DNA from: Candidatus Babeliales bacterium
GTDB lineage: Bacteria; Babelota; Babeliae; Babelales; JANWKD01
Assembly: GCA_963722255.1 (NCBI GenBank)
Contig: CAVRJO010000001.1
Location: 352,001-416,000, forward strand
Direction: 5' to 3'
Length of the DNA stretch: 64,000 nucleotides
Translations under genes and position numbers: made by a program
Part shown: in pieces, positions 1,109 through 63,406 of the stretch
Layout of the letters: every line of letters starts with the position of its first letter
How positions within the stretch are numbered: position 1 is the first letter of the stretch
The notes under the pieces: generated by a model
Seen by the model: the letters and a program-made list of their open reading frames with translations, nothing else
Told to the model about the DNA's origin: nothing
Database searches by the model: none

Positions 1109-1609
1109 TTATAGCGCACCTGACTTTTTAGTTTCTATTTGCAATTTTCTTTGCTCTTTAAGATTTGTTATAATTTGTATTTTAAAAGTTTTAATAAAAG
1201 ATACTTTAAAATCATTAACAAAATTTTCATAACCAATACTAACAGGTAAATACCCATATAATTCACTTGTATGTGAAGCTATCAAATTAAGATAGTTTGT
1301 CTCAAACTTTTTTATGATCTCATCAACTATGCCATTTTCGTTCTCATTTAATTCGACAGTTTCCCCTGTTTCCAACTTTGCAAGAACTTCATTATGGTCA
1401 TGTTTAAATTCATCGACTAAATGAGTAATAAATTTAAGAACTTCATCTATACGATTAGCTTCAACTTCAACTGGCACCTTTGTAATGGATGCTAAAACTC
1501 CTATTCGTTCTTCTAAATCATTGCTTTCTTGATGATGATGCTGCCCCTCCATAGATAAAAGTGGATTACACAAAACAATCAAACCTAAACAAATTATAAA
1601 TCTTTTCAT
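1109..1609 (-). CDS. Hypothetical exported protein (signal peptide + Met motif)
   Basis: ORF; MKRFIICLGLIVLCNPLLS|MEG; start adjusted from TTG 1630 to ATG 1609. Confidence 0.7.
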   Translation of the reverse strand: MKRFIICLGLIVLCNPLLSMEGQHHHQESNDLEERIGVLASITKVPVEVEANRIDEVLKFITHLVDEFKHDHNEVLAKLETGETVELNENENGIVDEIIKKFETNYLNLIASHTSELYGYLPVSIGYENFVNDFKVSFIKTFKIQIITNLKEQRKLQIETKKSGAL

Positions 1610-1643
1610 AAACAAACTACTTTCGTACAATAATCTTTATACT

Positions 1644-2024
1644 CTAATAATACAGGCCAGTAGCATTAAGATCGAACCTCACTTTTTTTTGCTTTATTCC
1701 TTTATCTCTCTGATCATCCAAATCATTTTTTGCTATTGATTCTAACCATATATTTTGTTCAGCTTTATAAACAGCTATGAGATCTAATAAGAGTTTATTT
1801 TGTTTAATATTGTAGTTAATACTATCAATAGCAAATTGCTTTTCTTCCTCTTTACGAGCAAAAAAAAGTGCTTTGAGATAATAATCAACCAAATCATTAG
1901 CATCAATAATCAATTGTTTATTTTCTGTTGCTTCGCTATTTGTACAATTATCTCTTTGCTCCATAGCAGACAGTTGACTACTTGTGAATAAAATAAGACC
2001 AAAAAAGATGTTTCTACTATTCAT
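1644..2024 (-). CDS. Hypothetical exported protein (signal peptide + Met motif)
   Basis: ORF with AAGGAG RBS; MNSRNIFFGLILFTSSQLSA|MEQ. Confidence 0.72.
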   Translation of the reverse strand: MNSRNIFFGLILFTSSQLSAMEQRDNCTNSEATENKQLIIDANDLVDYYLKALFFARKEEEKQFAIDSINYNIKQNKLLLDLIAVYKAEQNIWLESIAKNDLDDQRDKGIKQKKVRFDLNATGLYY

Positions 2025-2064
2025 ATAACTCCTTTATGTACTACCATAAATTTTATTTAATACC

Positions 2065-2097
2065 AAAAAAAAAGGCGATGTATTTAAACATCGCCTT
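2065..2097 (-). terminator. rRNA operon terminator
   Basis: aaggcgatg/catcgcctt stem plus U-run on the minus strand, directly after 5S. Confidence 0.8.
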
Positions 2098-2108
2098 CTA
2101 ATTTTTTA

Positions 2109-2224
2109 ACCTGGCAGTACCTACTTTTCCAGTCCGTTACCAAACAAGTATCATCGGCGTTGTAGACTTAACTTCCGTATTCGGGATGGGAACGGGTATT
2201 TCCCTACAACTATATCCACCAGGA
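2109..2224 (-). rRNA. rrf: 5S rRNA
   Basis: ~116 nt with paired ends (cctgg...ccagg) and 5S-like core (cccatcccgaatacggaagttaag on -), downstream of 23S. Confidence 0.92.
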
Positions 2225-2342
2225 ATTTTTTAGATCATCTTATTCTTAGATAAGTGATCAAACTTTTCAAACTTATTCTTGTGAATATTTGTAATTTAAA
2301 TCTCTATTTACTGATCACTTATCACCATAAAAATTTGTAGTG

Positions 2343-5361
<3,019 letters not shown>

Positions 5362-5524
5362 CAAATTTTTATGACTAATGTAATCAATAGGTAACAAACT
5401 CAATATGAATTTGTAGAGATTTAAATTACAAATATTTCAAAGATCACAAGAATTTAACTTTTATATCTATTAATTTTGTATTCGAAAAATCCATTTTATA
5501 AACCAATGCCAGCTTTAAAAAATC

Positions 5525-5600
5525 TGGTGGAGATGAGCGGAATCGAACCGCTGACCTTCCGCGTGCAAAACGGACGCTCTACCAACTGAGCTACATCCCC
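5525..5600 (-). tRNA. tRNA-Ala (TGC)
   Basis: Reverse complement ggggatgtagctcagttggtagagcg...tttgcac...ggttcgattcc...cca; 76 nt with encoded CCA. Confidence 0.96.
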
Positions 5601-5677
5601 TTATTTTATACAAAAGCTCAACTGAGACATCCACTGAAAACAGTTACAGCCATTCAATCAACACCCACCAACTATAA

Positions 5678-5754
5678 TGGTGGGCCTAAGTCGACTTGAA
5701 CGACTGACCTCCCCGTTATCAGCGGGGTGCTCTAACCACCTGAGCTATAGGCCC
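5678..5754 (-). tRNA. tRNA-Ile (GAT)
   Basis: Reverse complement gggcctatagctcaggtggttagagca...ctgataa...gttcaagtcg...cca; 77 nt. Confidence 0.96.
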
Positions 5755-5893
5755 AGCATTGTATTAACTAGTAACCCTATCAATAATTACTGATAAAAAT
5801 TAAACACTTATGAGTCTTACGAACTCTTTCAAATTTATATACACCTTTAAAAAACAAAAGTATAAGATACTTTTGAATCACATAATCTCCCTC

Positions 5894-7438
<1,545 letters not shown>

Positions 7439-7605
7439 CAAATTTATGTGAAAGATTTACATCGTAAGACTCATAAGCGAATTTTTAGGATTTTTCTATA
7501 CATTTCAAAGAAAAATTAATTTTTACTTTAACGTTCGACCTTCGCTTGTTAGCTGCTGCGATTCGTGTTGTGCGTTTGTTGTTTCAATCGTTAAATACAA
7601 AATAA

Positions 7606-12128: not shown

Positions 12129-13578
12129 TGTCAACGCAACGTGAAAAGTTCCGGTATTTAGCAAAGTAAAAAGTTCCTAACATTAAAGCGCCTCCACGGC
12201 CGGCGCGACCGGCTTCAACCTACTCTCACTAGGGGGCAACCCGCCTGCCCAACGTTGGCTATTTTTTGAAGGCTTTCTTGGTATACAGTCAGATATTTTT
12301 TTCTCCTGAATTTGGGGGGTTGGTCGTTGGTAGATTTCGCTAAAAGAAAGTTCTGTTTTTCGAATCCACAGTTTTATGGTTCCATTTAAATGTACTTTAA
12401 CAACAATGGTATTTTTTGGAAAAATGATTGTTTTTTGCTGATCGCTTAATTGAAAAATCTGTTTTTGGTAGGTAATAGTAAAATCATTCGTAAGAATACG
12501 AGTCTCTTGTGTGCTAAATATATCGTTTAAATCAAATGATTGAGCGCTAGCATGGGCATCGCCTTCTTGGGCAGCAGGAACTTGAAATGCAGCATTATGC
12601 TTTGCAATATAATTGCTTGTTCGCAGATAATTATTTGCTTGATCTATTGATGATATCCCAGCAAGTCTCATTTCCTTAATAAGGCGATCTTGAAGGGTTT
12701 GATTGCAACGTTCAACGCGGCCCTTTGCCTGAGGACTATTGGCATGTATAACATCAATTCCCAAATCTTTACAAGCGCGCTCCCATTGGGTCTTTTTAAT
12801 ATTTTCTTGATTACTCAAATTAACATGGAAAACAGAACCGTGGTCAGTATAAAAAGTTTGAGGAATCCCATATTTTTCAACGTAATTTTTAGTTGCGGTC
12901 ATTAAAGCATGCATCGATTCAGAAGGGGCAAACTCAAGCCAAAGGATTTGGCCAGTAGCATCGTCAATAAAAACAAGTAAGGTACATACCCCAGCACGCC
13001 CTTCAAACCAGTCATGTGGAGAGCCATCAAGCTGAATCATTATGCCAAACATACGCCTTCTTTCTCGTCGCTTGCGATGCTTGCTGCGCTGTTTTTTAGG
13101 TTGCCATATTCCTGCCTTAATCATGACCTTTCTAACAGCTTCTCGACTTATCTTTATTCCATGCAACTCTTTAAGTTTTTCAGCCGCAAAGGTTGGCCCA
13201 AAGCCTTGCCAATCGCTTTCTAACAATGAGATTAACAATCGTTCTTCTCCTTGATCCCATCTATTTGGGCTTTCTTTTCCCCTATTGCCATGTACAAGGC
13301 CAAAGTCGTCAGATTCACAATATCTTCCATATTTTTCTCTGACCCACCGCTCTGTAAATCTCAGACGGGCTGCAGCCTCTGCCTGTGTCATTTTTCCTTC
13401 TTTAACCTGAACAAACACTTTTGCCTGTTCTCGTTCTTTGCGATTCATGGTAATATATTCCATATAAGTTCCGTTGCATTTTTAGAGTTTTTCTTTTTGT
13501 TTACAAGATTAAGTTTACCCTAAAAACCGGAACTTTTTACTTTGCGCTATAATAGGAACTTATCACTTTGCGCTAACA
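12129..13578 (-). mobile_element. Insertion sequence, IS1202 family (formerly ISNCY), 1450 bp
   Basis: Ends TGT...ACA; paired internal motifs (gcaacgtgaaaagttcc, gcaaagtaaaaagttcc left; ggaactttttactttgc, ggaacttatcactttgc right); 17-bp direct repeat aaatcttaattgatttc at 12112-12128 and 13579-13595. Confidence 0.9.
12183..13463 (-). CDS. DDE transposase (ISNCY/IS1202 family)
   Basis: N-terminal HTH, QLDGSPHDWFE, FIDDATG, YTDHGS, SPQAKGRVER...TLQDRL motifs. Confidence 0.93.
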   Translation of the reverse strand: MEYITMNRKEREQAKVFVQVKEGKMTQAEAAARLRFTERWVREKYGRYCESDDFGLVHGNRGKESPNRWDQGEERLLISLLESDWQGFGPTFAAEKLKELHGIKISREAVRKVMIKAGIWQPKKQRSKHRKRRERRRMFGIMIQLDGSPHDWFEGRAGVCTLLVFIDDATGQILWLEFAPSESMHALMTATKNYVEKYGIPQTFYTDHGSVFHVNLSNQENIKKTQWERACKDLGIDVIHANSPQAKGRVERCNQTLQDRLIKEMRLAGISSIDQANNYLRTSNYIAKHNAAFQVPAAQEGDAHASAQSFDLNDIFSTQETRILTNDFTITYQKQIFQLSDQQKTIIFPKNTIVVKVHLNGTIKLWIRKTELSFSEIYQRPTPQIQEKKISDCIPRKPSKNSQRWAGGLPPSESRLKPVAPAVEAL

Positions 13579-14989: not shown

Positions 14990-16951
14990 TTACTTATTTT
15001 GTTGCAAATACTCTTTGGTTTTAAATTTTTTAAAAGGGCGTTTTTCTTTTCTCTTTTTTTGACCTTCTTCTTCGCGTTCTTTGCGTTTTTCTTTTAAAAC
15101 TTTTATAGGAGACTGTTTTTTTGGTTTATATGGCAAAGGAAAACCAGCGGCTGAGCCGATCAATTCAATATTTCTGTTATAAAAATATTCGCGAATTTTT
15201 TTTGGCAATGCTAAAAATGCTTCTTTATACCCCTTTGGTATTGCTACAGGCTGATTTTTTTCTTCCCCCATTACAAAATACCTTAACAAAAGTGCACCTT
15301 TTAAAGATAATGTTTGAAGTTTTTTAGGAGCTAAAAAAGAAACTAAAGTTATTATTCCATCTTTATCAAAAGTATTATGTTGCTCGATATATGATATTTT
15401 GCTTCCATCTGGAGAAAAACTTACTGAATAAATATTATGATGATTGCCGCTCATGGATTTTACTAACTTACCACTATGCATATCCCAAATTTTTACATCT
15501 CTATTACTTATAATTAATCGAGGTGGCCAACCCTTACGTTCTAACGGTTTTGAGTCACTAAATCCTGAAATAAGAAAGTTACCTTTAGGTGAAAAAGCTA
15601 ATGATGGATAATAAATCCTCCAAGCAAGATTATCACCATCAAGAATCTTTGTTACTTTTTTTTGATTTATATTAACTATTCTTATTTTTCCATCACTCCA
15701 TGCTGAAGCACAATAGTTGTTGTCTGGCGAAAAAACTACAAATTTTATTGATACATCCTGCTCGTCAATCTTTATAAAATCATTTTCTTGTAGATCCCAA
15801 ATTAATAACTTTTTATCATCTTCATAAGCACAAAAACGTGAATTTGCTGATAATGAAATAGTATTAATGTTTCGACCGTTAATTGTATGTTTTATTTCAT
15901 ATGTCTGAGCATCTATAATAAAACCTGTATCATATAAGCCAATGGCAATTAATCGATCATCCGGAGAAAAACAAATCGAACGAACAGTCCTTCTCTTTTG
16001 GTCACTTATTTCTTTTACAAGTGAACCATTATTAATATCATAAATACATACTTTCCCATCTACTAAACCAATAATTAGAAACTTCCCCGATGATGATATT
16101 TTCATAGGAAAACTATACTCAGGCGGCCAAGATCCATCAAATTTAGTCTCAAATTCATTTAATTGCTTAAGCTGCTCCAAGTCATGGACTATTACAGAAC
16201 TTCCTTGATAACTAATAATTTCTTTAAAAGTTCCTACTAACCATTTTTTGCCTGCTACACAAGTACTAAAAACAGGAAATCTAATAGGTATTTTTTCTTC
16301 TGTTACAGAAGAATCACCAAACCTTATTAGCAAACCATACATTTCAGAAATTTTATTAATTTCAGGAACAATCTTTTGCTCTATTTCTGGAATATTTATC
16401 ATTCGACCTAATCGAAAAAAAATATCCCATTCATTTTCTACTGCAAGCCTATTAAGTACTTTTTGAAGATCTTTACTACTAACTTTTAAGAGACCTTCAT
16501 GTCCAATAAAATTTGCAATAATCATTAGATCAATAAGATTGCTAAGATTTTTTGGATACCATTGTTCAACTAAATAGTGTACTGTTTTTTTTACTGAGTC
16601 ATAGTGCAATAATGTCTTTGCAACAGCTTCAAGGGCTTTCAATTGGTCAATTGTTACTGCAGAAGAAGGAATTTGCACACTTAATTCCTCTCCCTCCTCT
16701 TCTTCCTTAAATTGCAAATTATTCCATATAACTGATGATTCTTGGGCAAATGAATAAGGAACTTGAATTGAATATAAAGGCACACCGCGCTCATCTATTA
16801 GTTCAAGTCTTACAAACTTATTCTCTAATGCCTTAGAGACATCTTCAAAAGCCGCTGGAGGTATTTGTTGAATAACTCTTCGTTCTTCCATTGAATTTAC
16901 AGATGAATTCAACAATAACAAAGATCCTAATAGAAATAACTTCAATATCAT
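14990..16951 (-). CDS. Exported SKP1/BTB-like + WD40 repeat protein with basic C-terminal tail
   Basis: Signal peptide; SKP1-like segment (VPYSFAQESSVI...LIDLMIIANFIG); WD40 repeats (FSPD...IWD); KKRKEKRPFKKFK tail. Confidence 0.82.
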   Translation of the reverse strand: MILKLFLLGSLLLLNSSVNSMEERRVIQQIPPAAFEDVSKALENKFVRLELIDERGVPLYSIQVPYSFAQESSVIWNNLQFKEEEEGEELSVQIPSSAVTIDQLKALEAVAKTLLHYDSVKKTVHYLVEQWYPKNLSNLIDLMIIANFIGHEGLLKVSSKDLQKVLNRLAVENEWDIFFRLGRMINIPEIEQKIVPEINKISEMYGLLIRFGDSSVTEEKIPIRFPVFSTCVAGKKWLVGTFKEIISYQGSSVIVHDLEQLKQLNEFETKFDGSWPPEYSFPMKISSSGKFLIIGLVDGKVCIYDINNGSLVKEISDQKRRTVRSICFSPDDRLIAIGLYDTGFIIDAQTYEIKHTINGRNINTISLSANSRFCAYEDDKKLLIWDLQENDFIKIDEQDVSIKFVVFSPDNNYCASAWSDGKIRIVNINQKKVTKILDGDNLAWRIYYPSLAFSPKGNFLISGFSDSKPLERKGWPPRLIISNRDVKIWDMHSGKLVKSMSGNHHNIYSVSFSPDGSKISYIEQHNTFDKDGIITLVSFLAPKKLQTLSLKGALLLRYFVMGEEKNQPVAIPKGYKEAFLALPKKIREYFYNRNIELIGSAAGFPLPYKPKKQSPIKVLKEKRKEREEEGQKKRKEKRPFKKFKTKEYLQQNK

Positions 16952-16990: not shown

Positions 16991-18958
16991 TTATTGCAAA
17001 TACTCTTCGGTTTTAAATTTTTTAAAAGGGCGTTTTTCTTTTCTCTTTTTTTGAGCTTCTTCTTCACGTTCTTTGCGTTTTTCTTTTAAAAATCTAATCG
17101 GCGATTCTTGGGGTTTTTTATATATAGGATAAATATAGGGAATCGATGCCGGCGATTCACCCAGTTCTATATTTCTCTCGTGAAAAAACCTTCGAATTTT
17201 TTTAGGTAATTGATTAAATACTTCAAAATAACCTCTTGGTATTTTTAATGGTTGATTGTTCTCTGATTGCTCAGCAAAATACCAAAGTAATAAGGATGAT
17301 TGCAAAGTAAACTCTTCAAAGTTTTTAGGGGAAACTTTCATTATATACAAATTTCCCTGATTATATATCGAGCCTTCCCCAATATAAGCCAAATTTTTTC
17401 CATCAGGAGAAAAACTCACTTCATAAATATTTCGATCAGCACCTTGGATAGGAATAGTTCTTGCAAGAGATCTATTTTGAATATCCCAAATTTTCACCTC
17501 TCGTTCAAAGGGTATAATTGTAGGATTGTCTAAAGGCAAATAACTAAATCCCCTTGCCAATAATTTACTGTCCGGTGAAAATGCTAATGATACATAGCTA
17601 AGATGAAAATGTTTATCTTCGGCCAGCTCCACTTCAATAATAAATTTACTCTTCATATGTAAAATTTTTACTTCTCCATTAGCCAGTGCATAAATTAAAT
17701 AGTTATTGTCTGGTGAAAACAATAATGATTTAACTTCATAATAACGAGGACTATGTCTTTGTGAACCAACCTTGATTTTTTTGAACAAATTATCATTCTT
17801 TAAATCCCAAATTTTAACATTGCCTGCAGAACTTTCATAAAAACTATTAAATGCGATATATCTTGTATCCACAGAGAATGCAAGAGCTTGAGCATAAGTC
17901 TCGGCAAATTCTTTTTTCGTTTCAAAAGTAAGGGCATCTACTATAAGAACTCGATTATCCAAACAAATTCCAATATCCAGATCATCAGCAGAAAAATACA
18001 AAGATCTAATAGGACTTGGAAGCTGCAGCTCCTTAAATAACTCACCAGTTGAAATGCTATAAACTAACAACCTATAACCTGAAGCTATTGCTAAGTATTT
18101 TCCTGAATGAGAAATCTTAAAAGGCAAACGATAATCAGGAGGATTAACCCCATCAAAACGAATCGGGAATTCATTAATTGTTTTTTGTGTTTGCAAATCT
18201 ACAATTTTTGCAAAATAGTTTCGAAATCCGTGTCGTTCCAAAGATTCCATCGTCCCAGCTAACCATTGTGCTCCTGAGCACAAAGTACTAAACATTGGCA
18301 TGTGTATGGAAATCTTTTTAACTGATGAATACAGTTTTTCTGCTAATGCAATCAAAATCTGATTTTTAATTATCTTATTTTTTAATCTATCCTGCACATC
18401 CAAAATTTTAATCATCGCTGGGATCTGAAAAAAAAGTTCAAATTTTTGTTCATCAAGCATTTTTTTCAAATACCGAGTAAACTCTTCTAAACCCATATCA
18501 AATAATCGTTCATTTCCAATGAAATTTGAAACATATATAAGATCTATCAACATTCTTATATTATTTGGATACCATTGCTGTACCAAATACTGTACCGTTT
18601 GTTTTAGATTTTTACGCAAATAATTTTCATGAACAAAGCTTCGAAGCGCTTTAAGCTGTTCTAATGTTACGACTGAAGAATCAAATTGCACCGTAGGCTC
18701 TTTGCCTTCTTCCTCTTCCTGAAATTGTAATAAGTTCTTAATGACTGAAGATTCTTGTGCAAATGAATAGGGCACTCGAATTGAATAAAGAAGCTTTTCA
18801 TTTTCAACCAACTCGAGAATAACATATTTGTCTTCCTTTTCTATTTCAGATTCCGGAACTAAAAAAGGCATTGGCCGAGATCCTTTTTGTTCTTCCATTG
18901 CCATAAGAAATACATTCAAAAATAACAAAGACCCGCACAACAATAATTTCAGATTCAT
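16991..18958 (-). CDS. Exported SKP1/BTB-like + WD40 repeat protein, tandem paralogue
   Basis: Same architecture as 14990-16951; near-identical last ~100 nt; start ATG 18958 after AGAGGA. Confidence 0.82.
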   Translation of the reverse strand: MNLKLLLCGSLLFLNVFLMAMEEQKGSRPMPFLVPESEIEKEDKYVILELVENEKLLYSIRVPYSFAQESSVIKNLLQFQEEEEGKEPTVQFDSSVVTLEQLKALRSFVHENYLRKNLKQTVQYLVQQWYPNNIRMLIDLIYVSNFIGNERLFDMGLEEFTRYLKKMLDEQKFELFFQIPAMIKILDVQDRLKNKIIKNQILIALAEKLYSSVKKISIHMPMFSTLCSGAQWLAGTMESLERHGFRNYFAKIVDLQTQKTINEFPIRFDGVNPPDYRLPFKISHSGKYLAIASGYRLLVYSISTGELFKELQLPSPIRSLYFSADDLDIGICLDNRVLIVDALTFETKKEFAETYAQALAFSVDTRYIAFNSFYESSAGNVKIWDLKNDNLFKKIKVGSQRHSPRYYEVKSLLFSPDNNYLIYALANGEVKILHMKSKFIIEVELAEDKHFHLSYVSLAFSPDSKLLARGFSYLPLDNPTIIPFEREVKIWDIQNRSLARTIPIQGADRNIYEVSFSPDGKNLAYIGEGSIYNQGNLYIMKVSPKNFEEFTLQSSLLLWYFAEQSENNQPLKIPRGYFEVFNQLPKKIRRFFHERNIELGESPASIPYIYPIYKKPQESPIRFLKEKRKEREEEAQKKRKEKRPFKKFKTEEYLQ

Positions 18959-29106: not shown

Positions 29107-29110
29107 TATA

Positions 29111-29572: not shown

Positions 29573-29639
29573 ATGAAAAATAGTGTAACACAAACTGTAT
29601 TTTTCACAAGAAAAAACGCGGCGTACAAATAAAAAAGCG

Positions 29640-43497: not shown

Positions 43498-43746
43498 TCA
43501 AAAAAGCCAACACCAATTTTCAGTAGTTTGTGGCCTACCGTGCGCTCGTATCATAGCAGCGTACAATGCATCTGCTTGTGTAATTCTTTGACCCATCTCA
43601 TTTTGTTGTTTTGCAACTGCAAGAGCAACTTGAATTTCAAAAAGCGAAGGTCGTTCATTACCATATTCATCAACTTTATTTTCCATACTTTTCAAAGAGG
43701 CAACGACACTCAAACAGTAAATAAAACAGATAACAATTTTATTCAT
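43498..43746 (-). CDS. Small exported protein ending in CWLF
   Basis: GAGGGAG RBS; MNKIVICFIYCLSVVASLKS|MEN; Cys at -4. Confidence 0.65.
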   Translation of the reverse strand: MNKIVICFIYCLSVVASLKSMENKVDEYGNERPSLFEIQVALAVAKQQNEMGQRITQADALYAAMIRAHGRPQTTENWCWLF

Positions 43747-50081: not shown

Positions 50082-50693
50082 ATGAAAAAATTAGTATTAT
50101 CCTTGAGCTTGATGCTTCTATCACTATCCCAGACAAAAAGCATGCATTCAGAAATTTTTAAAAATATCCCAACTTCAAGCGCTTTAACTATAGTAAAAAA
50201 AATGGTCTTAACCGTTTGTGGAAAATATGCACTTGACCCTCTAGTAAATAGCATTCATGAACTAGGACACATGCTCACTCTAAAATTATTATTAGGAGTT
50301 GATAGTACTATTCATTTAACTATAGTTCCTTGGCGCCCACCATATTTTCAATTAAAAGAACCTATGGTTCTTCCAAAAGGATTACGTCTAGCGTCAGTTT
50401 ATGCTGCAGGACCATTAGCTGGATTATTGGCGATCTATTCGCTCTCTAAACTTAATAATATTCGTTATGAATATTTCACCGGAACGCCAATCATGCAAGC
50501 AGTAACAACCGGTTTAATAAAGCCATTTTTCAATAGTGACCAAAGCTGGACAACAAAAACAGTATTAGGTTGGATGATAGTAGACCAATTATTTAATTTT
50601 ATTCCCTTGAAACTTTATTTGCCACAACTAGGAGAGTCAAAAAGTGATGGATATCAAATACTTGAAGCATTAGATTATTATCAAGAAAAATAA
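50082..50693 (+). CDS. M50-like membrane metallopeptidase, copy 1
   Basis: HELGH, AAGP, NFIP...SDG. Confidence 0.75.
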   Translation: MKKLVLSLSLMLLSLSQTKSMHSEIFKNIPTSSALTIVKKMVLTVCGKYALDPLVNSIHELGHMLTLKLLLGVDSTIHLTIVPWRPPYFQLKEPMVLPKGLRLASVYAAGPLAGLLAIYSLSKLNNIRYEYFTGTPIMQAVTTGLIKPFFNSDQSWTTKTVLGWMIVDQLFNFIPLKLYLPQLGESKSDGYQILEALDYYQEK

Positions 50694-51549: not shown

Positions 51550-52134
51550 ATGCATCTCAAAAAATTAATAGCTTCTTTATGCTTCCTCTTAGCAGCAAAC
51601 CATACGTCACAAACTATGAATCTGGAATATTTTAAAAATATGGCCTCTCAAGAAACTATAAAAACAGTTGGCGTTGCATTAGGTGCATTTTGCTTGATCA
51701 ATCCTCAGTTTTGTAATTTTCATGAACTATGCCATGGCCTTACGGTAAAAGCATTGTTTAATCTGCCGGTAACTTATAAATTCGAATTTCTTCCTTGGAA
51801 ATTCCCTGCCTATGACTATGATAAATCAAAAGTTCCACTAAAAGGATTACGCAGAGCTCTTTTGCATGCAAGTGGCACCGTAGGTGGATTAGCTGCGATT
51901 TATGCAGCATCAAAATGTGTCAATATTGGCATAGAATACTATGGCGGTCAATCACTTATCGAAGCTGTTTCCAATGGATTACAAAAATCATTTTTTTCAT
52001 GCGATCAGCATTTTGCAAGGCGACTGGTTTGCGCAGGCTTAATTACGACACAACTGGCAAATCTAATTCCCTTCAAGTGGCCTTTTGAAAGTGATGGTTA
52101 TCGCACTCTAAAGGCTTTGAATATTATAGAATAA
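51550..52134 (+). CDS. M50-like membrane metallopeptidase, copy 3
   Basis: HELCH, ASG, NLIP...SDG. Confidence 0.72.
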   Translation: MHLKKLIASLCFLLAANHTSQTMNLEYFKNMASQETIKTVGVALGAFCLINPQFCNFHELCHGLTVKALFNLPVTYKFEFLPWKFPAYDYDKSKVPLKGLRRALLHASGTVGGLAAIYAASKCVNIGIEYYGGQSLIEAVSNGLQKSFFSCDQHFARRLVCAGLITTQLANLIPFKWPFESDGYRTLKALNIIE

Positions 52135-52428: not shown

Positions 52429-52800
52429 TTACTGCATACAACACTTCTTTTTTTCATTTCCTGAAATTTCATCTGACTCTTTTATATCAGCGCTGCTGAT
52501 ATCAATACATATCAAGAAAAAATCATAGGTAATACAATAACAAGTAAACGGCTCATATAAGGTAACACGTGATTCATGTGCATCAAATACTGCTTTCAAA
52601 CAATTTGATTCAATAACTTTTTTGGGTACCTGTAAATCAACCGATTCTTGCATAAGTTGCTCGGCAATATCTTTTTTTGTTACCCATGGTTCTACAGCAG
52701 AAACTATTTCATCAAAATTCAAGAGCATACTGCTACATGGCTTTGATATAAACAATAAAGCTGTACAAGAAAGAATTTTTACATAGTGAGCTTTTTGCAT
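52429..52800 (-). CDS. Small exported protein with C-terminal KKKCCMQ
   Basis: AAGGAG RBS; signal-like N-terminus; polybasic + CaaX-like end. Confidence 0.68.
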   Translation of the reverse strand: MQKAHYVKILSCTALLFISKPCSSMLLNFDEIVSAVEPWVTKKDIAEQLMQESVDLQVPKKVIESNCLKAVFDAHESRVTLYEPFTCYCITYDFFLICIDISSADIKESDEISGNEKKKCCMQ

Positions 52801-52926: not shown

Positions 52927-53727
52927 TTAATATATACAACAGGCATCATAATAATAGCGTTGATATAGAGCTTCTCTCATTATTTTCTCATTTTTTTTAC
53001 AAGCATTATCTACAGATTCATCTATTTGCAGTACGAATGGCAACAAATCTTCTGCACCCTCTTTAGGAGAAATATCCGATGTATCAAGTTTAAAATCATA
53101 GTGCTTATGATCATCCACAATCTCTTGTAATCTCGATCCTTTTCTATAATGTTGCTCGAAATAACATTCTAATCTATGTTGCAACGTATCATCCGATGCA
53201 TTTCTTTCTTGTAACCTCTTTTTTGCAATTTCATACGAACAAAAAACTTTAATCAAAGCAATAGTTTGAAGCTTCTTTCTAAAAACATATAGAAAATCGA
53301 GGAAACTTCCTCGATTCATAAAGCAATGATCTACTATTACCAACTTTCCTTCAACCATTTTTTCCAAGATTTGATTGTAAAAAATAACAAAATCTTGTTG
53401 TATTTCCTGTTTGATACCTTTTAAATAAGGATCTGCAAAAATATGAATTCCCTTATTTTCAAAATAAGCTATTTGTTCTTTGGTATAGTTACTATTATTG
53501 GACACTTCTACTTGATATCTATCAAAACTCATATGAGATACATTATTAATTCCTTTTTCATGAGCAAGATTCACCAACGACTTTGCCAAAGATGTTTTTC
53601 CTGCGCATGAAGGACCGTTCAAAAGCGCAAGACGAATATCATTATCATGCCTTTCTTCCATACAAAAAGTCGAAGCGCATGCAAATAAAAATCCGCTTAA
53701 TAAAACTTGTATACTAGTACTGTTCAT
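52927..53727 (-). CDS. P-loop kinase (chloramphenicol phosphotransferase-like) with signal peptide
   Basis: LLNGPSCAGKTSLA, VIVDH, V.CS.E...RL..R, YDFKLDTS..SP.E.A; ends CCIY. Confidence 0.78.
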   Translation of the reverse strand: MNSTSIQVLLSGFLFACASTFCMEERHDNDIRLALLNGPSCAGKTSLAKSLVNLAHEKGINNVSHMSFDRYQVEVSNNSNYTKEQIAYFENKGIHIFADPYLKGIKQEIQQDFVIFYNQILEKMVEGKLVIVDHCFMNRGSFLDFLYVFRKKLQTIALIKVFCSYEIAKKRLQERNASDDTLQHRLECYFEQHYRKGSRLQEIVDDHKHYDFKLDTSDISPKEGAEDLLPFVLQIDESVDNACKKNEKIMREALYQRYYYDACCIY

Positions 53728-56073: not shown

Positions 56074-56226
56074 TCTCTTTCCTTTTTGATGATTCATTTG
56101 CTATTTTTAAGTAAGAGTAATGATGAAATAGTTGGAAATGCAATACTTTATCCAAACACCAAGCATATAAAAGGACTCATAGTCGTTACTACGGAGAATT
56201 CGTTAAAAATCGATTGGACCTGTGCT

Positions 56227-56874
56227 ATGAAACAATACTTTTTACCAACATTTTTTATTTTTTTAAATGTCTTTAAACCAACTCTCTGCATGCAAAGAGA
56301 TTTCGCTCTCCATAAAGAAAGAAATCTGTATCGTTGGTCACAACTTATGTATATTCAAGCACTTATGGAGCCAAACCTACTCGTTCAACAGGACCTTTTT
56401 AATCAAGCCCATACCTTAGCAACGACAAAAGACCTTAGAAAGAAAATCGAAAAATCAAAAAGATTTGCGCAAAAAAGCTATGCTGCCGATGCAAAAAAAG
56501 CCCTTCTATCAAAGTTAGTTGCTCAACAACTAGTAAAAGAGGCCAAAAGGAAAAATAAAGAATTAGCGCACAAAAAAGCAGAATTATCAAAAAGCAAACA
56601 ACGAAAAATAATTCGTCAAGAGTATATTCGATTAGTAGAAGAAAAAAACAGGCTCTTGGATCTTGCACAAAAAGAATATATTGCTGCAGCAATGTTCTAT
56701 CTTTTAGTATATGACAATGCACAAAAAGAGCGGTATCTTTCATATGCTGAAGATATTGTCAGCAAAAAGATATATGAAATTGAAATTGAACAGATGTCAA
56801 CCTCACATATCTTTACTATATATAATGAAAAAATTAATCTTTTTAAAGAAATACAAAAACGCAAAGGAAATTAG
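56227..56874 (+). CDS. Hypothetical exported basic helical protein (signal peptide + Met motif)
   Basis: MKQYFLPTFFIFLNVFKPTLC|MQR; K-rich coiled coil. Confidence 0.65.
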   Translation: MKQYFLPTFFIFLNVFKPTLCMQRDFALHKERNLYRWSQLMYIQALMEPNLLVQQDLFNQAHTLATTKDLRKKIEKSKRFAQKSYAADAKKALLSKLVAQQLVKEAKRKNKELAHKKAELSKSKQRKIIRQEYIRLVEEKNRLLDLAQKEYIAAAMFYLLVYDNAQKERYLSYAEDIVSKKIYEIEIEQMSTSHIFTIYNEKINLFKEIQKRKGN

Positions 56875-56876
56875 TT

Positions 56877-58958
56877 ATGAAATCTGGTAGTATACTAGTG
56901 GTTGCTTTACTAATACTCATAAGCGGCCTTATTTTTTGGCATATAACACTCAAAACAGAAAATTACACTATGATATATTCAATAAAAACAGTAGATGATA
57001 TTCATAAAATTTTTCCACATGATATCGCTGGAATTAAGTCACTAGCGTCTCAAGCAATACAAGAGGCAGAACAAAGGATCGCAGAGCTCATTGAACGTAC
57101 ACCTGAAAAACGAACTGTTGAAAATACTCTTTATGGATTCGATACGGCCTACATGCATTTTAGGCAAGCAATTGCCACGCTTGAAGCCCTTGTGTTATTA
57201 AGTCCTGATGATGCAATTCGCACAGAAGCAGAAAAAGAATCAGTCGTACTTCAAAAAAAATTTATAGATCTTTTTGCCCAAAATAAAGCATTATATACTG
57301 TGCTCAATGAGTTTAATGAAGCGTATAAAAATAGCCCTTTACTCTCAGCAGAAGAGCATTATTTTCTTAACGAAACAGTCTTGGATTATCAACGAAATGG
57401 CCTTGATCTACCTGACGAACAACGTAAAAAGGTTATCGAATTACAAAAAGAGCTTGCTGAGCTTTGTACTGAATTTTCTCAAAATATCGCAACCGACAAA
57501 AGTTCTATAACGGTAACGCGTAATGAACTTGCTGGCTTAGAAGATTCATTTATTGATGCTTTAAAAAAGACGGACGATGGCCGTTTTATTCTTGGCGTCG
57601 ATTATCCAACATTTTTTGCTGTAATGTCATTTGCACAATCAAGCGAAACGCGAAAAAAATTATACAATGCCTTTAATAATCGCGCATATCCTATAAATAC
57701 CCCCGTTTTACAAAAAATAATCGAAAAACGACATGAATTGGCTCAAATGCTTGGGTTTACAAGCTTTGCACATCTTTCATTGGCAAGTGAAATGGTGCAT
57801 AATCCTGAACGAGCATTGCAATTTCTTACTGACCTTCTTAAAAGAATCAATACTAAAGAAGCATTAGAGTTTAAAGAATTAACCAAAGAGCTTCCGCCTT
57901 CTGTCAAACTTTCAAATGGGAAAATGCATCCTTGGGATAAAACCTATCTTATTGAACAGTACAAAAAATCACATTTTAATCTCGATGAAAACCTTATAAC
58001 TCATTATTTCCCCATGGATAACACCATTAAAGAACTTTTATCAATTTATGAACAGTTTTTAAACGTTACCTTTAAAGAGGAACCAATAAAAGGTTTATGG
58101 CATCCCGATGTCCGCTGTATTGCCGTTTACAATAATAATCAATTAGCTGGATATCTTTTACTTGATCTTTATCCTAGACCCAATAAATTCAGCCATGCAT
58201 GCCAAACAACTATAATACCAGCACGAATCAATAACGATGGCTCAATTGAACCAGCACTTGCAATTGTTATTGCAAACTTTCCAAAAGCTACAGCAACACA
58301 GCCAGCCTTGCTTCCACGGCGCGATGTTACGACTTTTTTCCATGAATTTGGCCATGCATTACATGCTTTACTTGGCGCTACACATCTTGCTGCAACATCA
58401 GGAACCAATGTAAAAACAGATTTTGTTGAAATGCCATCACAGATGCTGGAAGAATGGCTTTGGGACAAAGATATCCTAAAGAAAATTAGTTCACATTATC
58501 AAACAGGGAAACCACTTTCTGATGATGTTATCAATACCCTACTAAGCATTAAAAATATTAGTACCGGCAATGATCTACAGCGTCAAATTGTCTTTGGTCT
58601 TTTATCACTTACACTTTTTAATGAAAGTGATAAGAAAGATATTGATGCTATTTTCAAAAAGATTTATGAAAATACCCGTGTTCATGAAGAATTTGACCCT
58701 AACGCACATCCTTATGATTCTTTTGGCCATTTAACCGATTATGGTGCAAAATATTACAGCTATTTATGGTCAAAAGTATTTGCTCTTGATCTTTTTGAAA
58801 CAATAAAAAAAGTTGGTTTATTAAACCCGGAAATTGGGGTTCGCTATAAAGAGATGATTCTTGCACCGGGCGGTAGCAAAGATCCTAATGAATTATTAAA
58901 AGATTTCTTAGGTCGTGAACCTAATAATGATGCGTTTATGCATGATTTAGGATTGTAA
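56877..58958 (+). CDS. M3A family oligopeptidase (thimet oligopeptidase-like) with N-terminal anchor
   Basis: LDLYPRPNK, FHEFGHALH, DFVEMPSQMLEEW, YYSYLWSKVFA, FLGREP. Confidence 0.92.
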   Translation: MKSGSILVVALLILISGLIFWHITLKTENYTMIYSIKTVDDIHKIFPHDIAGIKSLASQAIQEAEQRIAELIERTPEKRTVENTLYGFDTAYMHFRQAIATLEALVLLSPDDAIRTEAEKESVVLQKKFIDLFAQNKALYTVLNEFNEAYKNSPLLSAEEHYFLNETVLDYQRNGLDLPDEQRKKVIELQKELAELCTEFSQNIATDKSSITVTRNELAGLEDSFIDALKKTDDGRFILGVDYPTFFAVMSFAQSSETRKKLYNAFNNRAYPINTPVLQKIIEKRHELAQMLGFTSFAHLSLASEMVHNPERALQFLTDLLKRINTKEALEFKELTKELPPSVKLSNGKMHPWDKTYLIEQYKKSHFNLDENLITHYFPMDNTIKELLSIYEQFLNVTFKEEPIKGLWHPDVRCIAVYNNNQLAGYLLLDLYPRPNKFSHACQTTIIPARINNDGSIEPALAIVIANFPKATATQPALLPRRDVTTFFHEFGHALHALLGATHLAATSGTNVKTDFVEMPSQMLEEWLWDKDILKKISSHYQTGKPLSDDVINTLLSIKNISTGNDLQRQIVFGLLSLTLFNESDKKDIDAIFKKIYENTRVHEEFDPNAHPYDSFGHLTDYGAKYYSYLWSKVFALDLFETIKKVGLLNPEIGVRYKEMILAPGGSKDPNELLKDFLGREPNNDAFMHDLGL

Positions 58959-59011: not shown

Positions 59012-59384
59012 TTAATAGAATATATAGCCTGATTTTAAATACCATGATGCAATAAGCCAACGGTGACAGCCCATGCTTCTGCAGTAAATGCATTTGTTAT
59101 ACCACCACTCAGTCCTCCAGCAACAATTCCAGCTATCACAGTTTTAGTAAGCACCTCAGTAGCTACTCCGTAGCGAATATTCTATCCATTTCACTATACG
59201 TAAGCGCTGCTGGAATAACAAATGTTGGAATTACAGTAGCAGCAATTGTTACAGCTGTTTTCGCCTTAGGATGTGTTGCAAAATAGTTTCTAAGATCTTG
59301 TAACCCAATACCAAAAGTCTGGGTTGAAGCCGAAACTAAAACTATCGCCAATGCTATTTTAGAAATTAATGATTTTTTCATCAT
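59012..59384 (-). pseudogene. Small exported membrane protein family, copy 1 (frameshifted or sequence error)
   Basis: MMKKSLISKIALAIVLVSASTQTFG leader; ORF stops at 59163 but a hydrophobic continuation (VIAGIVAGGLSGG...) lies in another frame; 3' end approximate. Confidence 0.55.
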
Positions 59385-60062: not shown

Positions 60063-60126
60063 GTATCTCTAAACTACAATCTATTTTTATCAATAATTAG
60101 CTGCAAAAATCAATCCCGGTAATGCA

Positions 60127-60483
60127 TCACAAAGCATTACTAATGAAAATAGTTGCAAAAGTTAATGCTACAGCAGTTACATATCCAGCTGGATATTTTT
60201 CAGCTAATGTTCGTGAAGCAAATGCAATTCCAGCACCAATACCACAATCAACTGCTAGCATAGTTGCCGAAAGATTATGCCCATCAGCCTGTTGTAAAAA
60301 AGCTAGCATTACAGGAATGTAAGTCGCAGGTACATAAGTCGCAATGTTAACAACTGTGGATTTAACAAGCGGCTTTTTAAAAAATTTTTTAACATCTTTT
60401 ATCCCAATACCAAAAGCCTGGGTTGAAGCCGAAACTAATACTATAGCCAACGCTATTTTAGAAATTAATGATTTTTTCATCAT
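60127..60483 (-). CDS. Small exported membrane protein family, copy 3 (open frame)
   Basis: MMKKSLISKIALAIVLVSASTQAFG leader, about three hydrophobic helices; AAGGA RBS. Confidence 0.72.
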   Translation of the reverse strand: MMKKSLISKIALAIVLVSASTQAFGIGIKDVKKFFKKPLVKSTVVNIATYVPATYIPVMLAFLQQADGHNLSATMLAVDCGIGAGIAFASRTLAEKYPAGYVTAVALTFATIFISNAL

Positions 60484-60687
60484 TTATCCTTTATTTTAAC
60501 TAAAAAAAATAACAATTTTACTCTGCAATTCTATCAAATATATCATATTTGTCAATTTTTGTTAAAAATAAGCTTTTCAGATTCCCCCAGGAAGGCGACA
60601 GCGCTTCGATGCTTTTGACAAAATAGTCAATTTTATAATAATCTATATTTGTATTATTAAATATATATAAAAAATGGAATAGTTTCT

Positions 60688-62756
60688 ATGAAAAAAATAC
60701 ATATACTTTTAACACTCTTTCTTGGGGTGACCGTGCTCACCTTAGTTAGTCTCAACAATAGACAGGTACCAACCTCAGGTCACAAAGCTTTATTTCAAAA
60801 AATGTTTCCTAAGACAGAAAAGGAAATTGTTGCTCTAGCAACAAAGGCTATTCAAGAAGCGAAAGAATCCCTGGCTAAATTGACTTCAGGAAGCCAGGAA
60901 CAGAGAACTTTTGCCACTACAATTCAGGCGTATGATACCATAAAAAATAACTTTCTAAATACAAGCCGTATTATAGGAGCAATCCCTATGGTATATCCTC
61001 AGGAGGCTTTAAGAACCAGAGCCCAGGAACAATTATTACTCTTACAAAAAGCAGAAATTGAGCTTTTTGAACATAATCATGATCTTTTTACTACACTTAA
61101 GAGGTATTATAAGGAAAAAGCTCCTTCTGAAAATCTTACTGAAACGCAAACCAATTTTCTTGAATCGGTAATGCAAGGTTTTAAAACAACAGGTCTTACC
61201 TTATCTCCTGATCAAAAAAAAGAAGTGATTGAACTCAAACAAAGAATTACAACCCTGTCTATCACATTCCAAAAAAATATTTCAAAACCTCATGATAAAA
61301 CCTTATTAGTTTCTGGCCAAGATCTTCAAGGTCTTTCTGAAAATTTTATAAAAAATTTAAAACAAACCGCTGATGGACATTACATACTTACGTGCGATTC
61401 TGGTACGTATACAACAATTATGATCTCATGTTCAGTAAGTTCAACACGAGAAAAAATTTATAAGCTCTTTCTTGATCGTTCATATCCAAACAATATGGAT
61501 GTATTAAAAGATTTGCTTACCTGCAAAAACAAGCTTGCTCAGTTGCTGGGATATGCAAGTGGAGCAGATCTTGAATTGTGTACCACTATGGCAAAAACAC
61601 CTGAATGCGCTGAACAGTTTCTTATGAAGCTTGCACACGACATCGAACCTCTGGAAACGCAAGAATTTAAAACTCTTATACAAAATCTTCCATCAGATGT
61701 CAGATTATCACCAGATGGAAAACTTTACCCTTGGGATAGAACCTATCTCATGGAACAGTATAAAAAAAACAAAAGCACCCTCGATGAAAATCTCATTGCA
61801 GAATATTTTCCTCTAGAAAACACGCTTAAAGAACTTTTTTCATTATATGAAAAGTTTTTTAACATACAATTTCATCGTGAACCAATTCATGGTCTTTGGG
61901 ATCAAGATCTTCAGATTCTTACTATTTACCAAAATAATGAAATCGTAGGTTACTTACTCCTCGATCTTTTTGCAAGACCAAATAAATTTCATAATGCCTG
62001 CCACACAGCGCTTATTACTCCACAACTTTTAACCACAGGTGCAATCAAACCGGGTGTATCATTGGTGCTTGCACATTTTGCGCGACCGCTTAAAAACCAT
62101 ACAACTCTTTTAAAACATGATGATGTTTCAACACTCTATCATGAATTTGGGCACGCACTGCAGCGTTGCTCGGCGCATCACCCTTTGCAACAGTTTCAGG
62201 AACCTTGGTAAAAAGAGATTTTGTTGAAGTACCATCGCAAATGCTTGAAGAATGGTTGTGGGATAAAGAAATTTTACAAAAGATAAGCTCACATTATAAA
62301 ACAAAAGAATCTTTGCCGGATACCCTCGCTGACACACTCATAGCAACTAAAAAAATTCATGCGGCAACACATGCACAAACCCAACTATTCTATTCGCTTA
62401 TGTCATTACTCTTTTTTAAGGATGGTGCACGTGAAGATTTACATGGCTTGTTTAAAAAGATTTACCAGCAAGTAAAGGTTCATGATTATTATTGCTCAGA
62501 AGTCCACGGCTACCTCTCATTTACCCATTTTATTACCTATGATGCTAAATATTATAGTTATGTATGGTCAAAAGTATTTGCGCTTGATCTTTTTGATTCT
62601 ATAAAAAAAGTCGGTTTATTAAATCCGGAAGTTGGCGTTCGATTTAAAGAAATTGTTCTCGCACCGGGTGGCAGCAAAGATCCTCATGCTTTACTTGTAG
62701 AGTTTCTAGGCCGAGAGCCAAATGATACTGCATATCTGAATAATTTGAAGCTTTAA
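60688..62756 (+). CDS. M3A oligopeptidase paralogue, 1-nt frameshift near 62162
   Basis: ORFs 60688-62211 and 62166-62756 join: HEFGHAL-ca(t)-gcg-ttg restores HALLGA as in the paralogue; DFVEVPSQMLEEW, FLGREP. Confidence 0.85.
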
Positions 62757-62764
62757 AAAATAAA

Positions 62765-62793
62765 AGCCGCTGTAGATAATAACCACAGCGGCC
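62765..62793. terminator. Hairpin between convergent genes
   Basis: gccgctgt / acagcggc stem. Confidence 0.6.
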
Positions 62794-62818
62794 TAACAAA
62801 TATAATACTAATAGTAGA

Positions 62819-63406
62819 TTAGTTCACACGATACTCATTAATTCCACGATAAACTAAAGCACCACCCACTAAGGAATAGGGAAGCCATTTACTAAAAGAC
62901 CCCGCAAATGTAGCAACCATTCTTAATTTTGAAGTTTTTTCTTTTCTTCTTTTTGCATCTGCACAATAAGCAAAAGCATTCTTTAAAGCAGGAATGGAAA
63001 TAAGTCCTACTACAATTGCTGTTGGCTTAATCAAAGAAGTTAATTCTACTTGTTGAGACCATGAACAACAGCGCGCCGCAAGAGCACAGCCTATACCTGC
63101 AGGAAGTCCGTAGCAGAGTGTATCTATAAAACTTTCACCCAAAATATCTATTTTTTTGCTCATAAGACGACCCCATAAATCAGTACGTTGTTTATAGAAA
63201 TTGATCCAATCATCTGATTCAACTAAAACTTTAGTAACTAATTTACTAGCACCAACAAAAGCGGCCGCCGCAAGAGCTATTTTTCCAGCTTCTTTGGTTA
63301 ACACGGTATTCTTGAGCATTTCAGCATACTGCATAGAAAAAACCGTACTTGACGATCCAACAAGCATTATCCCCATAAAAATCTTTGAAAATTGAAAATT
63401 TTTCAT
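62819..63406 (-). CDS. Hypothetical exported membrane protein (signal peptide + Met motif)
   Basis: AAGGA RBS; MKNFQFSKIFMGIMLVGSSSTVFS|MQY; several TM helices. Confidence 0.68.
   Translation of the reverse strand: MKNFQFSKIFMGIMLVGSSSTVFSMQYAEMLKNTVLTKEAGKIALAAAAFVGASKLVTKVLVESDDWINFYKQRTDLWGRLMSKKIDILGESFIDTLCYGLPAGIGCALAARCCSWSQQVELTSLIKPTAIVVGLISIPALKNAFAYCADAKRRKEKTSKLRMVATFAGSFSKWLPYSLVGGALVYRGINEYRVN

Follow-up and report, generated by a model that had tools for sequence, protein, structure and literature searches.

The 64-kb window analysed here (64,000 nucleotides, positions 352001-416000 of contig C1) comes from the two-contig genome of a Candidatus Babeliales bacterium (G000; 1,618,240 bp, 34% G+C, 93% complete) and contains 17 genes whose products start with a hydrophobic leader that ends in front of an internal Met. 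All 17 leaders and the junction strings given for them in the initial annotation were confirmed letter for letter by re-reading the open reading frames (ORFs). The coordinates listed there are those of the first start codons, and the junction Met lies 18-24 codons further downstream. Each of the leaders is Sec-shaped: Met is followed by Lys, Arg or Asn, then by a hydrophobic core and a small residue before the junction Met, and a Shine-Dalgarno-like motif stands ahead of most of the ORFs. The junction reads Met-Glu, Met-Gln or Met-Asn in 14 of the 17 proteins (nine, three and two, respectively), as previously described.

The genes are distributed over the whole window and lie on both strands (coordinates are window positions; a slash marks the junction). 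Two orphans are encoded on the minus strand at 1109-1609 (166 residues, 19-residue leader at 1553-1609, Met codon at 1552, NPLLS/MEGQHH; the predicted site is directly before Met and no Pfam family is matched) and at 1644-2024 (126 residues, 20-residue leader, Met codon at 1964, SQLSA/MEQRDN). A 653-residue beta-propeller protein matching WD40 families (14990-16951, minus strand; 20-residue leader, Met codon at 16891, SSVNS/MEERRV) is followed by its 655-residue WD40 paralogue (16991-18958, minus strand; 20-residue leader, Met codon at 18898, VFLMA/MEEQKG). The next three genes, all on the plus strand, encode a 250-residue orphan (26791-27543; 18-residue leader, Met codon at 26845, SSLFS/MKITTP), an 80-residue Gln/Asn-rich orphan (27580-27822; 19-residue leader, Met codon at 27637, YTSYA/MNQPQQ) and a 215-residue orphan (33764-34411; 18-residue leader, Met codon at 33818, LYAQA/MEKEET). 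Three orphans with 21-residue leaders come next: 334 residues at 34473-35477 (minus strand; Met codon at 35414, MSLQG/MERLTR), 250 residues at 36100-36852 (plus strand; Met codon at 36163, LNLTA/MQEQEI) and 124 residues at 37387-37761 (plus strand; Met codon at 37450, NTIKG/MEIKNS). The orphan at 43498-43746 (minus strand, 82 residues; 20-residue leader, Met codon at 43686, ASLKS/MENKVD) ends in CWLF. Further orphans are found at 50082-50693 (plus strand, 203 residues; 20-residue leader, Met codon at 50142, SQTKS/MHSEIF), at 51550-52134 (plus strand, 194 residues; 22-residue leader, Met codon at 51616, HTSQT/MNLEYF) and at 52429-52800 (minus strand, 123 residues; 24-residue leader, Met codon at 52728, KPCSS/MLLNFD), the last with the CaaX-like C-terminus KKKCCMQ and its basic patch. 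A 266-residue P-loop kinase-like protein (CPT/AAA_33; 52927-53727, minus strand) has a 22-residue leader, its Met codon at 53661, the junction ASTFC/MEERHD and the C-terminus CCIY. The last two orphans are encoded at 56227-56874 (plus strand, 215 residues; 21-residue leader, Met codon at 56290, KPTLC/MQRDFA), where the start is ambiguous, another ATG lying in frame at 56089 and a Shine-Dalgarno motif being absent ahead of 56227, and at 62819-63406 (minus strand, 195 residues; 24-residue leader, Met codon at 63334, STVFS/MQYAEM).

A site predictor that is blind to the residue at +1 cuts directly before Met in 11 of the 17 window proteins. In five it cuts 3-7 residues further upstream (three residues for the protein starting at 35477, four for 43746 and 50082, seven for 51550, and also for 53727), and the protein starting at 56227 was left unscored because the start model took the upstream ATG. 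Altogether, 11 of the 33 signal-peptide-like ORFs in the window have Met at the predicted +1 position, compared to about 0.6 expected at 1.8% Met. No Pfam family was matched by 14 of the 17 proteins; the remaining three are the two WD40 propellers and the P-loop kinase-like protein. Exported enzymes of the window do without Met at +1, in agreement with the initial annotation: this applies to an ADP-ribosylglycohydrolase (VFA/QN), a GMC oxidoreductase (SFS/KH), S9-like hydrolases (one reading AKS/QE) and the M3 peptidases. The view of the rule as a property of the window was not borne out, as it is instead genome-wide and restricted to certain clades.

The +1 Met pattern is real and far larger than the window. 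The predictor is a heuristic of our own, with -3 and -1 weights after von Heijne's rule, and the set that it calls signal-peptide-like includes membrane anchors and some spurious ORFs. In the whole 1.62-Mb genome this set comprises 766 of 1759 ORFs (44%), of which 200 (26.1%) have Met at the predicted +1 position against a background of 1.8% Met; these are referred to below as Met-first proteins. Another 77 have a Met at most three residues from the predicted site. Among the predicted +1 residues of the 766 ORFs, Met (200) is followed by Leu (77), Ile (48), Phe (45), Ser (44), Thr (35), Lys (34) and Gln (33). The residue after the +1 Met is Glu in 99 of the 200 proteins, Asn in 23, Gln in 19, Asp in 15 and Lys in 10, so that 156 of them carry Glu, Asp, Asn or Gln. 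The pattern is also visible without any site prediction. The share of Met at residues 19-24 is 5.7-7.9% in 700 leader-bearing ORFs compared to 1.3-2.5% in 1169 others, and the motif [ASGCT]-M-[EDNQ] starts at residues 15-34 with a frequency of 7.0 per 1000 positions compared to 1.0 per 1000 elsewhere, occurring there in 238 of the 1759 ORFs. When the identical pipeline was applied to 79 control loci (1.30 Mb) of diverse bacteria and archaea, Met was found at +1 in 6 of 222 cases (2.7%; Fisher p = 5e-18), and in 1 of 38 in the low-GC subset of these loci. With our own predictor, the initial expectation that Met at +1 exceeds both the background and the level in other prokaryotes thus holds.

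The Met-first leaders are ordinary Sec-type signal peptides, probably cut by signal peptidase I, and the earlier reading of them as translated export signals is sustained by their composition. Lys or Arg is found within residues 2-8 in 190 of the 200 leaders, and the median leader length is 21 residues. The longest stretch free of Asp, Glu, Lys, Arg, His, Gln and Asn spans 13 residues in the median and between 5 and 19 in the whole set, always below 20, although the hydrophobic region was a selection criterion and the core length is therefore not a fully independent result. Residues 2-21 of the mature proteins are hydrophilic, with a median hydropathy of -0.91 and values above 1.0 in just two of the 200, and mature residues 2-30 contain 10.9% Glu compared to 7.0% in the other proteins. 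Counted without the site predictor, the position before Met is occupied by Ala (79), Ser (61), Gly (46), Cys (34) or Thr (25) in 245 of 338 cases, and the most common residues at -3 are Leu (93), Ile (49), Ser (42), Val (31) and Ala (27). The c-region differs from that of the other leaders: it is Ser-rich at -6 to -4, has Leu or Ile at -3 in 50% compared to 34% and Phe or Tyr at -2 in 33% compared to 19%, and has Ala at -1 in 45% compared to 70%. Three other leader types were considered and rejected. Lipoprotein leaders cleaved by signal peptidase II do not fit a +1 Met without a lipobox, and Cys is found at the predicted +1 position in just 13 of the 766 ORFs. Only two of the 200 leaders have RR within the first 15 residues, as a Tat leader would. 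Type IV prepilin-like leaders are short and polar and are cleaved after Gly, with a hydrophobic segment of about 20 residues behind the site, while here it precedes it, and Glu is at +2 rather than +5.

Could the internal Met be a start codon, or what is left of one? If it were the true or an alternative start, the leader would be untranslated, or exported and cytoplasmic isoforms would be made. The second codon is always ATG, as this explanation needs, but that follows from the definition of the pattern. A Shine-Dalgarno motif of at least four bases precedes 74% of the 200 first ATGs (somewhat inflated, since the start model uses this motif; the value is 57% across all genes), 0.5% of the second ATGs and 6.9% of 6865 internal ATGs. 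The check for a ribosome-binding site before the second Met, which the initial annotation had proposed, therefore indicates that this Met is not an alternative start. TTG makes up 14 of the 77 Leu codons at +1 and GTG 5 of the 29 Val codons there, near background and without enrichment, and 190 of the 200 leaders have a Lys/Arg n-region followed by an uncharged core of 5-19 residues. We regard an internal start as highly improbable. An explanation by descent, in which signal peptides were captured or grew de novo ahead of intact ORFs so that the old start codon survives, was rejected as unlikely. In its favour, the Met-first genes are young with a quick turnover, and the kinase-like protein (52927-53727) has its P-loop 16 residues behind Met, which presumably puts Met about where the native N-terminus of its family would be. 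However, Glu follows the junction Met in 50% of the cases, whereas residue 2 of 571 native non-exported proteins is Lys in 19%, Asn in 11% and Glu in just 6%. Nor does the second ATG retain a Shine-Dalgarno remnant, its 0.5% being below the level at internal ATGs, and the mature parts gave 293 paralogue hits without a single leaderless one that starts at the aligned Met. A relic would also not account for a cut site exactly before Met across 160 unrelated families, or for a Met that is retained in 68% of diverged homologues where flanking positions are about 20% identical.

Several results show that selection keeps Met, usually Met-Glu, at the mature start of this class of cargo. The 200 Met-first proteins fall into 160 single-linkage families. 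Of the homologous pairs that were matched solely on sequence past mature residue 12, 370 are colinear at the N-terminus and less than 60% identical; 44 of these have Met in both members (11.2 expected), 41 are discordant and 285 lack Met; some of the discordant pairs have a Met a few residues off the predicted site and may be predictor errors. Met is retained in 68% of the homologues of Met-first proteins, compared to 16-26% identity at the adjoining positions. Within the family of the kinase-like protein (four members, 40-55% identity) Met23 and Glu24 are invariant, whereas the leader and the next residues vary; three of the four members also have Cys at position -4 from the C-terminus. Small +2 residues, which permit removal of Met by methionine aminopeptidase, are depleted (15 of 200 Met-first proteins compared to 79 of 266 others, p = 1e-9). 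The Glu codons after Met are GAA and GAG in a ratio of 77:22, matching the 79% share of GAA in the genome, which rejects a nucleotide-level motif as the cause and implies that selection acts at the protein level. The genes themselves change rapidly. In about 2.1 Mb sampled from relatives, a tblastn hit was obtained for 30 of the 200 Met-first proteins compared to 93 of the 266 without Met. In the syntenic region of G001, a genome of the same genus, housekeeping genes are 54-86% identical, and different Met-first genes stand in place of those of the window. Just one Met-first gene of the window, at 36100, has a detectable homologue in that region (28% identity); there the junction reads SILYT/MESDFT, leader and flanks have diverged, and Met-Gln corresponds to Met-Glu. 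A homologue search with the 36100 protein among 5.8 billion proteins returned only the protein itself.

The rule sets fast-evolving, effector-like proteins apart from the enzymes and envelope proteins that are also exported. The domain scan covered the proteins that lie wholly inside the sampled loci, namely 96 of the 200 Met-first proteins and 135 of the 266 high-confidence proteins without Met. A Pfam family was found in 26 of the 96, and 21 of these proteins have domains of eukaryotic type (ankyrin in ten, WD40 in six, TPR/Sel1 in two, DnaJ in two and a C2H2 zinc finger in one) compared to six of the 135 others (Fisher p = 1e-4), which bears out the co-occurrence with eukaryote-like domains anticipated for the window. 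Among the proteins without Met a Pfam family was found in 45 of the 135: six are ankyrin, TPR or DnaJ proteins and 39 belong to enzyme, envelope or membrane families, including FtsH, SecD, OmpH, amidase, M23, S41, M15, GH1 and HAD, compared to five of the 96 Met-first proteins (Fisher p = 3e-6). Cys at C-terminal position -4 occurs in 9 of the 200 Met-first proteins, in 4 of 443 other signal-peptide-like proteins and in 19 of 993 leaderless ORFs, and several of these Cys residues in Met-first proteins come after a basic patch. The initial annotation had also linked the motif to SKP1-WD40 and CaaX modules. The WD40 domains and the enrichment of a CaaX-like Cys at -4 agree with this; SKP1 does not, as neither SKP1 nor any other Pfam family matched the first 240 mature residues of either WD40 protein at E <= 0.01. 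The C2H2 protein is a 384-residue Met-first protein with several zinc fingers (PF00096, E = 9e-27), encoded on the minus strand at 381512-382663 of contig C2 (locus L200, 1512-2663). G000 also encodes two GNAT acetyltransferases with signal peptides, one Met-first and one not (L174, 15279-15830, plus strand of C1; L196, 1778-2641, minus strand of C2). It is unusual for acetyltransferases to be exported, and such enzymes might be relevant to modification of the N-terminus.

To place the rule among relatives, 37-200 kb per genome was sampled for 19 further members of the order, giving 20 with G000; these are small samples, and the genomes are not independent of each other. Seven of the 20 follow the rule strongly. 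Besides G000 itself, the proportions of signal-peptide-like ORFs with Met at +1 in these are 38/104 in G001, 32/115 in G003 (same family), 37/114 in G020, 16/50 in G022, 17/86 in G014 and 6/31 in G056. It is weak in G057 (5/61), G010 (3/33), G008 (3/40) and G005 (2/19), and at background level in G016 (2/45), G027 (0/30), G009 (0/26), G013 (1/33), G021 (1/28), G007 (1/22), G024 (0/22), G006 (1/28) and G012 (1/25). The strong genomes are larger (1.2-1.8 Mb compared to 0.8-1.2 Mb), and the Met-first share may follow the size of the effector repertoire. Families with the rule do not form one clade in a quick UvrB tree of 21 genomes from the order and four outgroups, in which 7 of 22 inner branches are unresolved and one outgroup branch is very long, probably due to a wrong ORF. 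A public contig titled 'uncultured Pseudomonadota bacterium' (L041) encodes a UvrB that is 71% identical to that of the window, compared to 45-53% for all other loci returned. Five of its ten called ORFs are signal-peptide-like, none with Met at +1, and it may be a mislabelled relative of the phylum.

What the Met serves may be sought in the bacterium or in its host. Two secretins were found in the genome, and no marker of a type III, type IV or type VI secretion system (T3SS, T4SS, T6SS) was found in its 93% complete sequence, which fits a two-step export route. With two secretins and none of these markers detected, the genome agrees with the available text of PMC4776705. The Met-first junction might only reflect which substrates a dedicated or altered signal peptidase prefers, or optimal cleavage of one leader class, and have no role after cleavage. 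G000 has two S26 signal peptidase I genes, and the Met-first leaders have a c-region grammar of their own, with less Ala at -1, more Leu/Ile at -3 and more Phe/Tyr at -2. On the other hand, G007 with two copies and G024 with three to four do not follow the rule whereas G014 with one copy does; housekeeping exported proteins of the same cell manage without Met; and neither the link to effector-type domains nor the bias at +2 would be explained. We consider a peptidase preference improbable as the sole cause. A duplicated signal peptidase I was rejected as the cause, since copy number is unrelated to the rule across 31 genomes. The exposed Met-Glu end, together with the acid-rich stretch behind it, could alternatively be a sorting mark for a second step, read in the bacterium after Sec export and cleavage, which would direct outbound cargo to secretins or outer-membrane vesicles and separate it from resident periplasmic and envelope proteins. 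This would agree with the division of the exported proteins into two classes (39 of 135 against 5 of 96 in envelope and enzyme families), with the preference for Glu itself rather than for all NatB-type residues, with the higher Glu content of mature residues 2-30, with the distinct c-region and with two secretins in the absence of a detected T3SS, T4SS or T6SS marker. There is a precedent in the lipoprotein export signal of Bacteroidetes, which according to the parts of PMC5080379 and PMC6222051 consulted also governs vesicle packing, and a Dependentiae isolate releases vesicles inside food vacuoles, as stated in the available text of PMC6561590. Against such a mark, neither a receptor nor a gene that co-occurs with the rule was identified, the number of signal peptidase I copies is unrelated to it, and exported hydrolases that plausibly act outside the cell do not carry the mark. 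A sorting code also has no obvious need for Met followed by a removal-blocking residue, and the depletion of small +2 residues would be a coincidence. Such a mark is a possible, if somewhat doubtful, explanation; it is nearly as good as the host-side one set out below, and accounts better for Glu over Asp and for the distinct c-region.

We tentatively favour a role of the N-terminus in the host, as a possibility short of being likely: cleavage would regenerate a retained-Met, NatB-type end suited to the host cytosol. A Sec-type leader, probably cut by signal peptidase I, would be carried by fast-evolving cargo aimed at the host, and the predicted cleavage would leave Met, mostly as Met-Glu and less often as Met-Asn, Met-Gln or Met-Asp, as the first mature residues. 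After export by Sec and then by secretins or vesicles, the N-terminus arriving in the host cytosol would resemble that of a eukaryotic protein made there, with a retained Met, a second residue that blocks methionine aminopeptidase, and membership of the class acetylated by NatB. Eukaryotic N-degron pathways recognise Asp, Glu, Asn, Gln or a bare small residue at position 1. A Met-first end would keep the acidic, export-friendly start of the mature protein while avoiding any of these as residue 1. This reading predicts Met specifically and also the depletion of small +2 residues. Whereas the pattern, the selection on it and its association with a protein class are read from the sequences directly, cleavage at the Met bond and every later step are what we infer from them. 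A number of observations weigh against a host-side role. The ratio of Glu to Asp after Met is 6.6 (99 compared to 15) although the background ratio is 1.3, which NatB logic alone does not predict. NatB works for the most part on chains still being synthesised, so that an imported protein would not necessarily become acetylated, and an N-terminus with Ala, Ser or Thr at +1 would escape the classical Arg/N-degron pathway as well. The difference in the c-region (Ala at -1, Leu/Ile at -3) speaks instead for recognition on the bacterial side. Moreover, 13 of the 20 sampled genomes of the order, which are also rich in signal peptides, show little or no trace of the rule, four ankyrin proteins and the exported ADP-ribosylglycohydrolase are without Met, and both delivery to the host cytosol and acetylation are deductions from sequence. 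The two mechanisms proposed in the initial annotation, disguise as a host-made protein and a sorting signal for a translocator, both remain candidates that the present data do not separate. In its widest form, the proposal would be that part of the Dependentiae uses a second Sec-leader grammar in which cleavage regenerates Met-Glu on hundreds of unrelated effectors, which would mimic host NatB substrates, with a Met that is retained and possibly acetylated, and stay hidden from N-degron surveillance; we put this forward as a conjecture that is rather less than probable.

The window has several other features. A complete rRNA operon (2109-7439, minus strand) with 16S, two spacer tRNAs, 23S and 5S is directly adjoined by the two Met-first orphan genes at 1109-2024. 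The leuS gene (40903-43374, plus strand) is broken into three or more ORFs, shows in-frame stops and frame changes, and is the sole match to leuS_bact (TIGR00396) in the genome, below the family cut-off. The syntenic leuS of G001 (815058-817328) is likewise in pieces by ORF calls; the fragmentation might come from indels in the assembly or from a synthetase that is split or degraded, or have another cause. One M3 peptidase (60688-62756, plus strand) is represented by two overlapping ORFs, 60688-62211 and 62166-62756, that each match one half of the Pfam model, owing to a frameshift or an assembly error, and an intact paralogue lies at 56877-58958. Two small paralogues at 59163-59381 and 60127-60480, both on the minus strand, share the leader MKKSLISKIALAIVLVSA/STQ and have neither Met at +1 nor a Pfam family. 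A DOT1-like methyltransferase domain (PF08123, E = 1.5e-14; 63495-63998, minus strand) continues past the end of the window. A UmuC/UmuD-like pair (IMS family and Peptidase_S24; 27835-29656, minus strand) and an integrase-core (rve) ORF (12183-13463, minus strand) may represent mobile or SOS-type elements, here within the reduced genome of a parasite. Two paralogues combining a predicted AAA-ATPase with a PD-(D/E)XK nuclease (PF09820 and PF08011) are encoded at 29640-31208 (minus strand) and 39696-40871 (plus strand), the second without most of the ATPase domain.

Dependentiae are widespread protist parasites for which we know of no dedicated effector injection system, although signal peptides are found on about 44% of their genes. 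A cut site followed by Met-Glu is a simple and strongly selected mark that splits the exported proteins into two groups, conserved enzymes and proteins of the envelope on one side and fast-evolving proteins with eukaryote-type domains on the other, and so offers a testable effector predictor for the phylum. In annotation, the second ATG invites a wrong start call, and signal-peptide predictors whose training sets come from other phyla could put these sites in the wrong place. If the mimicry is true, it would link signal peptidase processing to host N-terminal acetylation and N-degron biology, and would provide a one-residue mark for host-cytosolic effectors of an uncultured phylum and a proteome-wide N-terminal mimicry that is undescribed for any secretion system. 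If sorting is true, the rule would point to a second-step export code of a new kind.

The rule can be compared with several known systems. With classical Sec leaders cleaved by signal peptidase I, the Met-first leaders have in common the Lys/Arg n-region, an uncharged core with a median of 13 residues, a small residue at -1, a median length of 21 residues and a hydrophilic mature start. They are unlike them in the frequency of Met at +1 (26% compared to 2.7% in controls) and in the shifted c-region, which is Ser-rich at -6 to -4, favours Leu/Ile at -3 and Phe/Tyr at -2 and has Ala at -1 in only 45%. NatB-type N-termini of eukaryotes are Met-Asp, Met-Glu, Met-Asn and Met-Gln. The likeness to these lies in the 156 of 200 predicted mature ends with one of the four pairs and in the depletion of +2 residues that allow Met removal; the differences are that the ends here are predicted to arise from bacterial proteolysis, not on host ribosomes, and that Glu greatly outnumbers Asp. 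According to the available part of PMC3104963, there is a bias for N-terminal processing among cytosolic proteins and a bias against it among secretory proteins. As for Dependentiae isolates (PMC6561590, PMC4378268, as far as their available text goes), 44% of coding sequences in Chromulinavorax have signal peptides (PMC6561590); here too 44% of the ORFs are signal-peptide-like, most ankyrin proteins have signal peptides, and Sec and type II-like secretins are present. The word 'methionine' is absent from the available text of PMC6561590, PMC4378268 and PMC4776705, in which the +1 rule is undescribed, supplements aside. No published description of it was found in the literature on signal peptides, effectors, ankyrins and genomes of Dependentiae or Babela, or on NatB and bacterial effectors, again with supplements aside.

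The lipoprotein export signal of Bacteroidetes has an acidic consensus just after the +1 Cys. Like the Met-Glu end, it is a short acidic motif at the mature start, and it steers proteins to the surface or into vesicles; unlike it, the signal follows a lipidated Cys and signal peptidase II, whereas there is no Cys and no lipobox here and sorting is only proposed (PMC5080379 and PMC6222051, available parts). The Q-rule of Bacteroidetes concerns a Gln at +1 of signal peptidase I substrates that is cyclised to pyroglutamate, as given in the available text of PMC5837995 and PMC10653852. The terms 'methionine', 'TM6' and 'Dependentiae' do not occur in that of PMC5837995. Gln is at the predicted +1 position in 33 of the 766 signal-peptide-like ORFs here, making the Met rule an analogue and not a member. 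Both involve a lineage-specific preference for one residue right after the signal peptidase I site, a proteome-wide bias and a proposed protected or blocked N-terminus. They differ in that Gln, as far as those texts describe it, is found on most substrates, including periplasmic ones, and has a known cyclase, whereas Met followed by Glu, Asn, Gln or Asp is found on an effector-like part (200 of 766) and has no known modifying enzyme. The +1 Met rule may be described as signal peptidase I leaders with a lineage- and class-specific +1 residue, and the Q-rule is the nearest phenomenon described so far.

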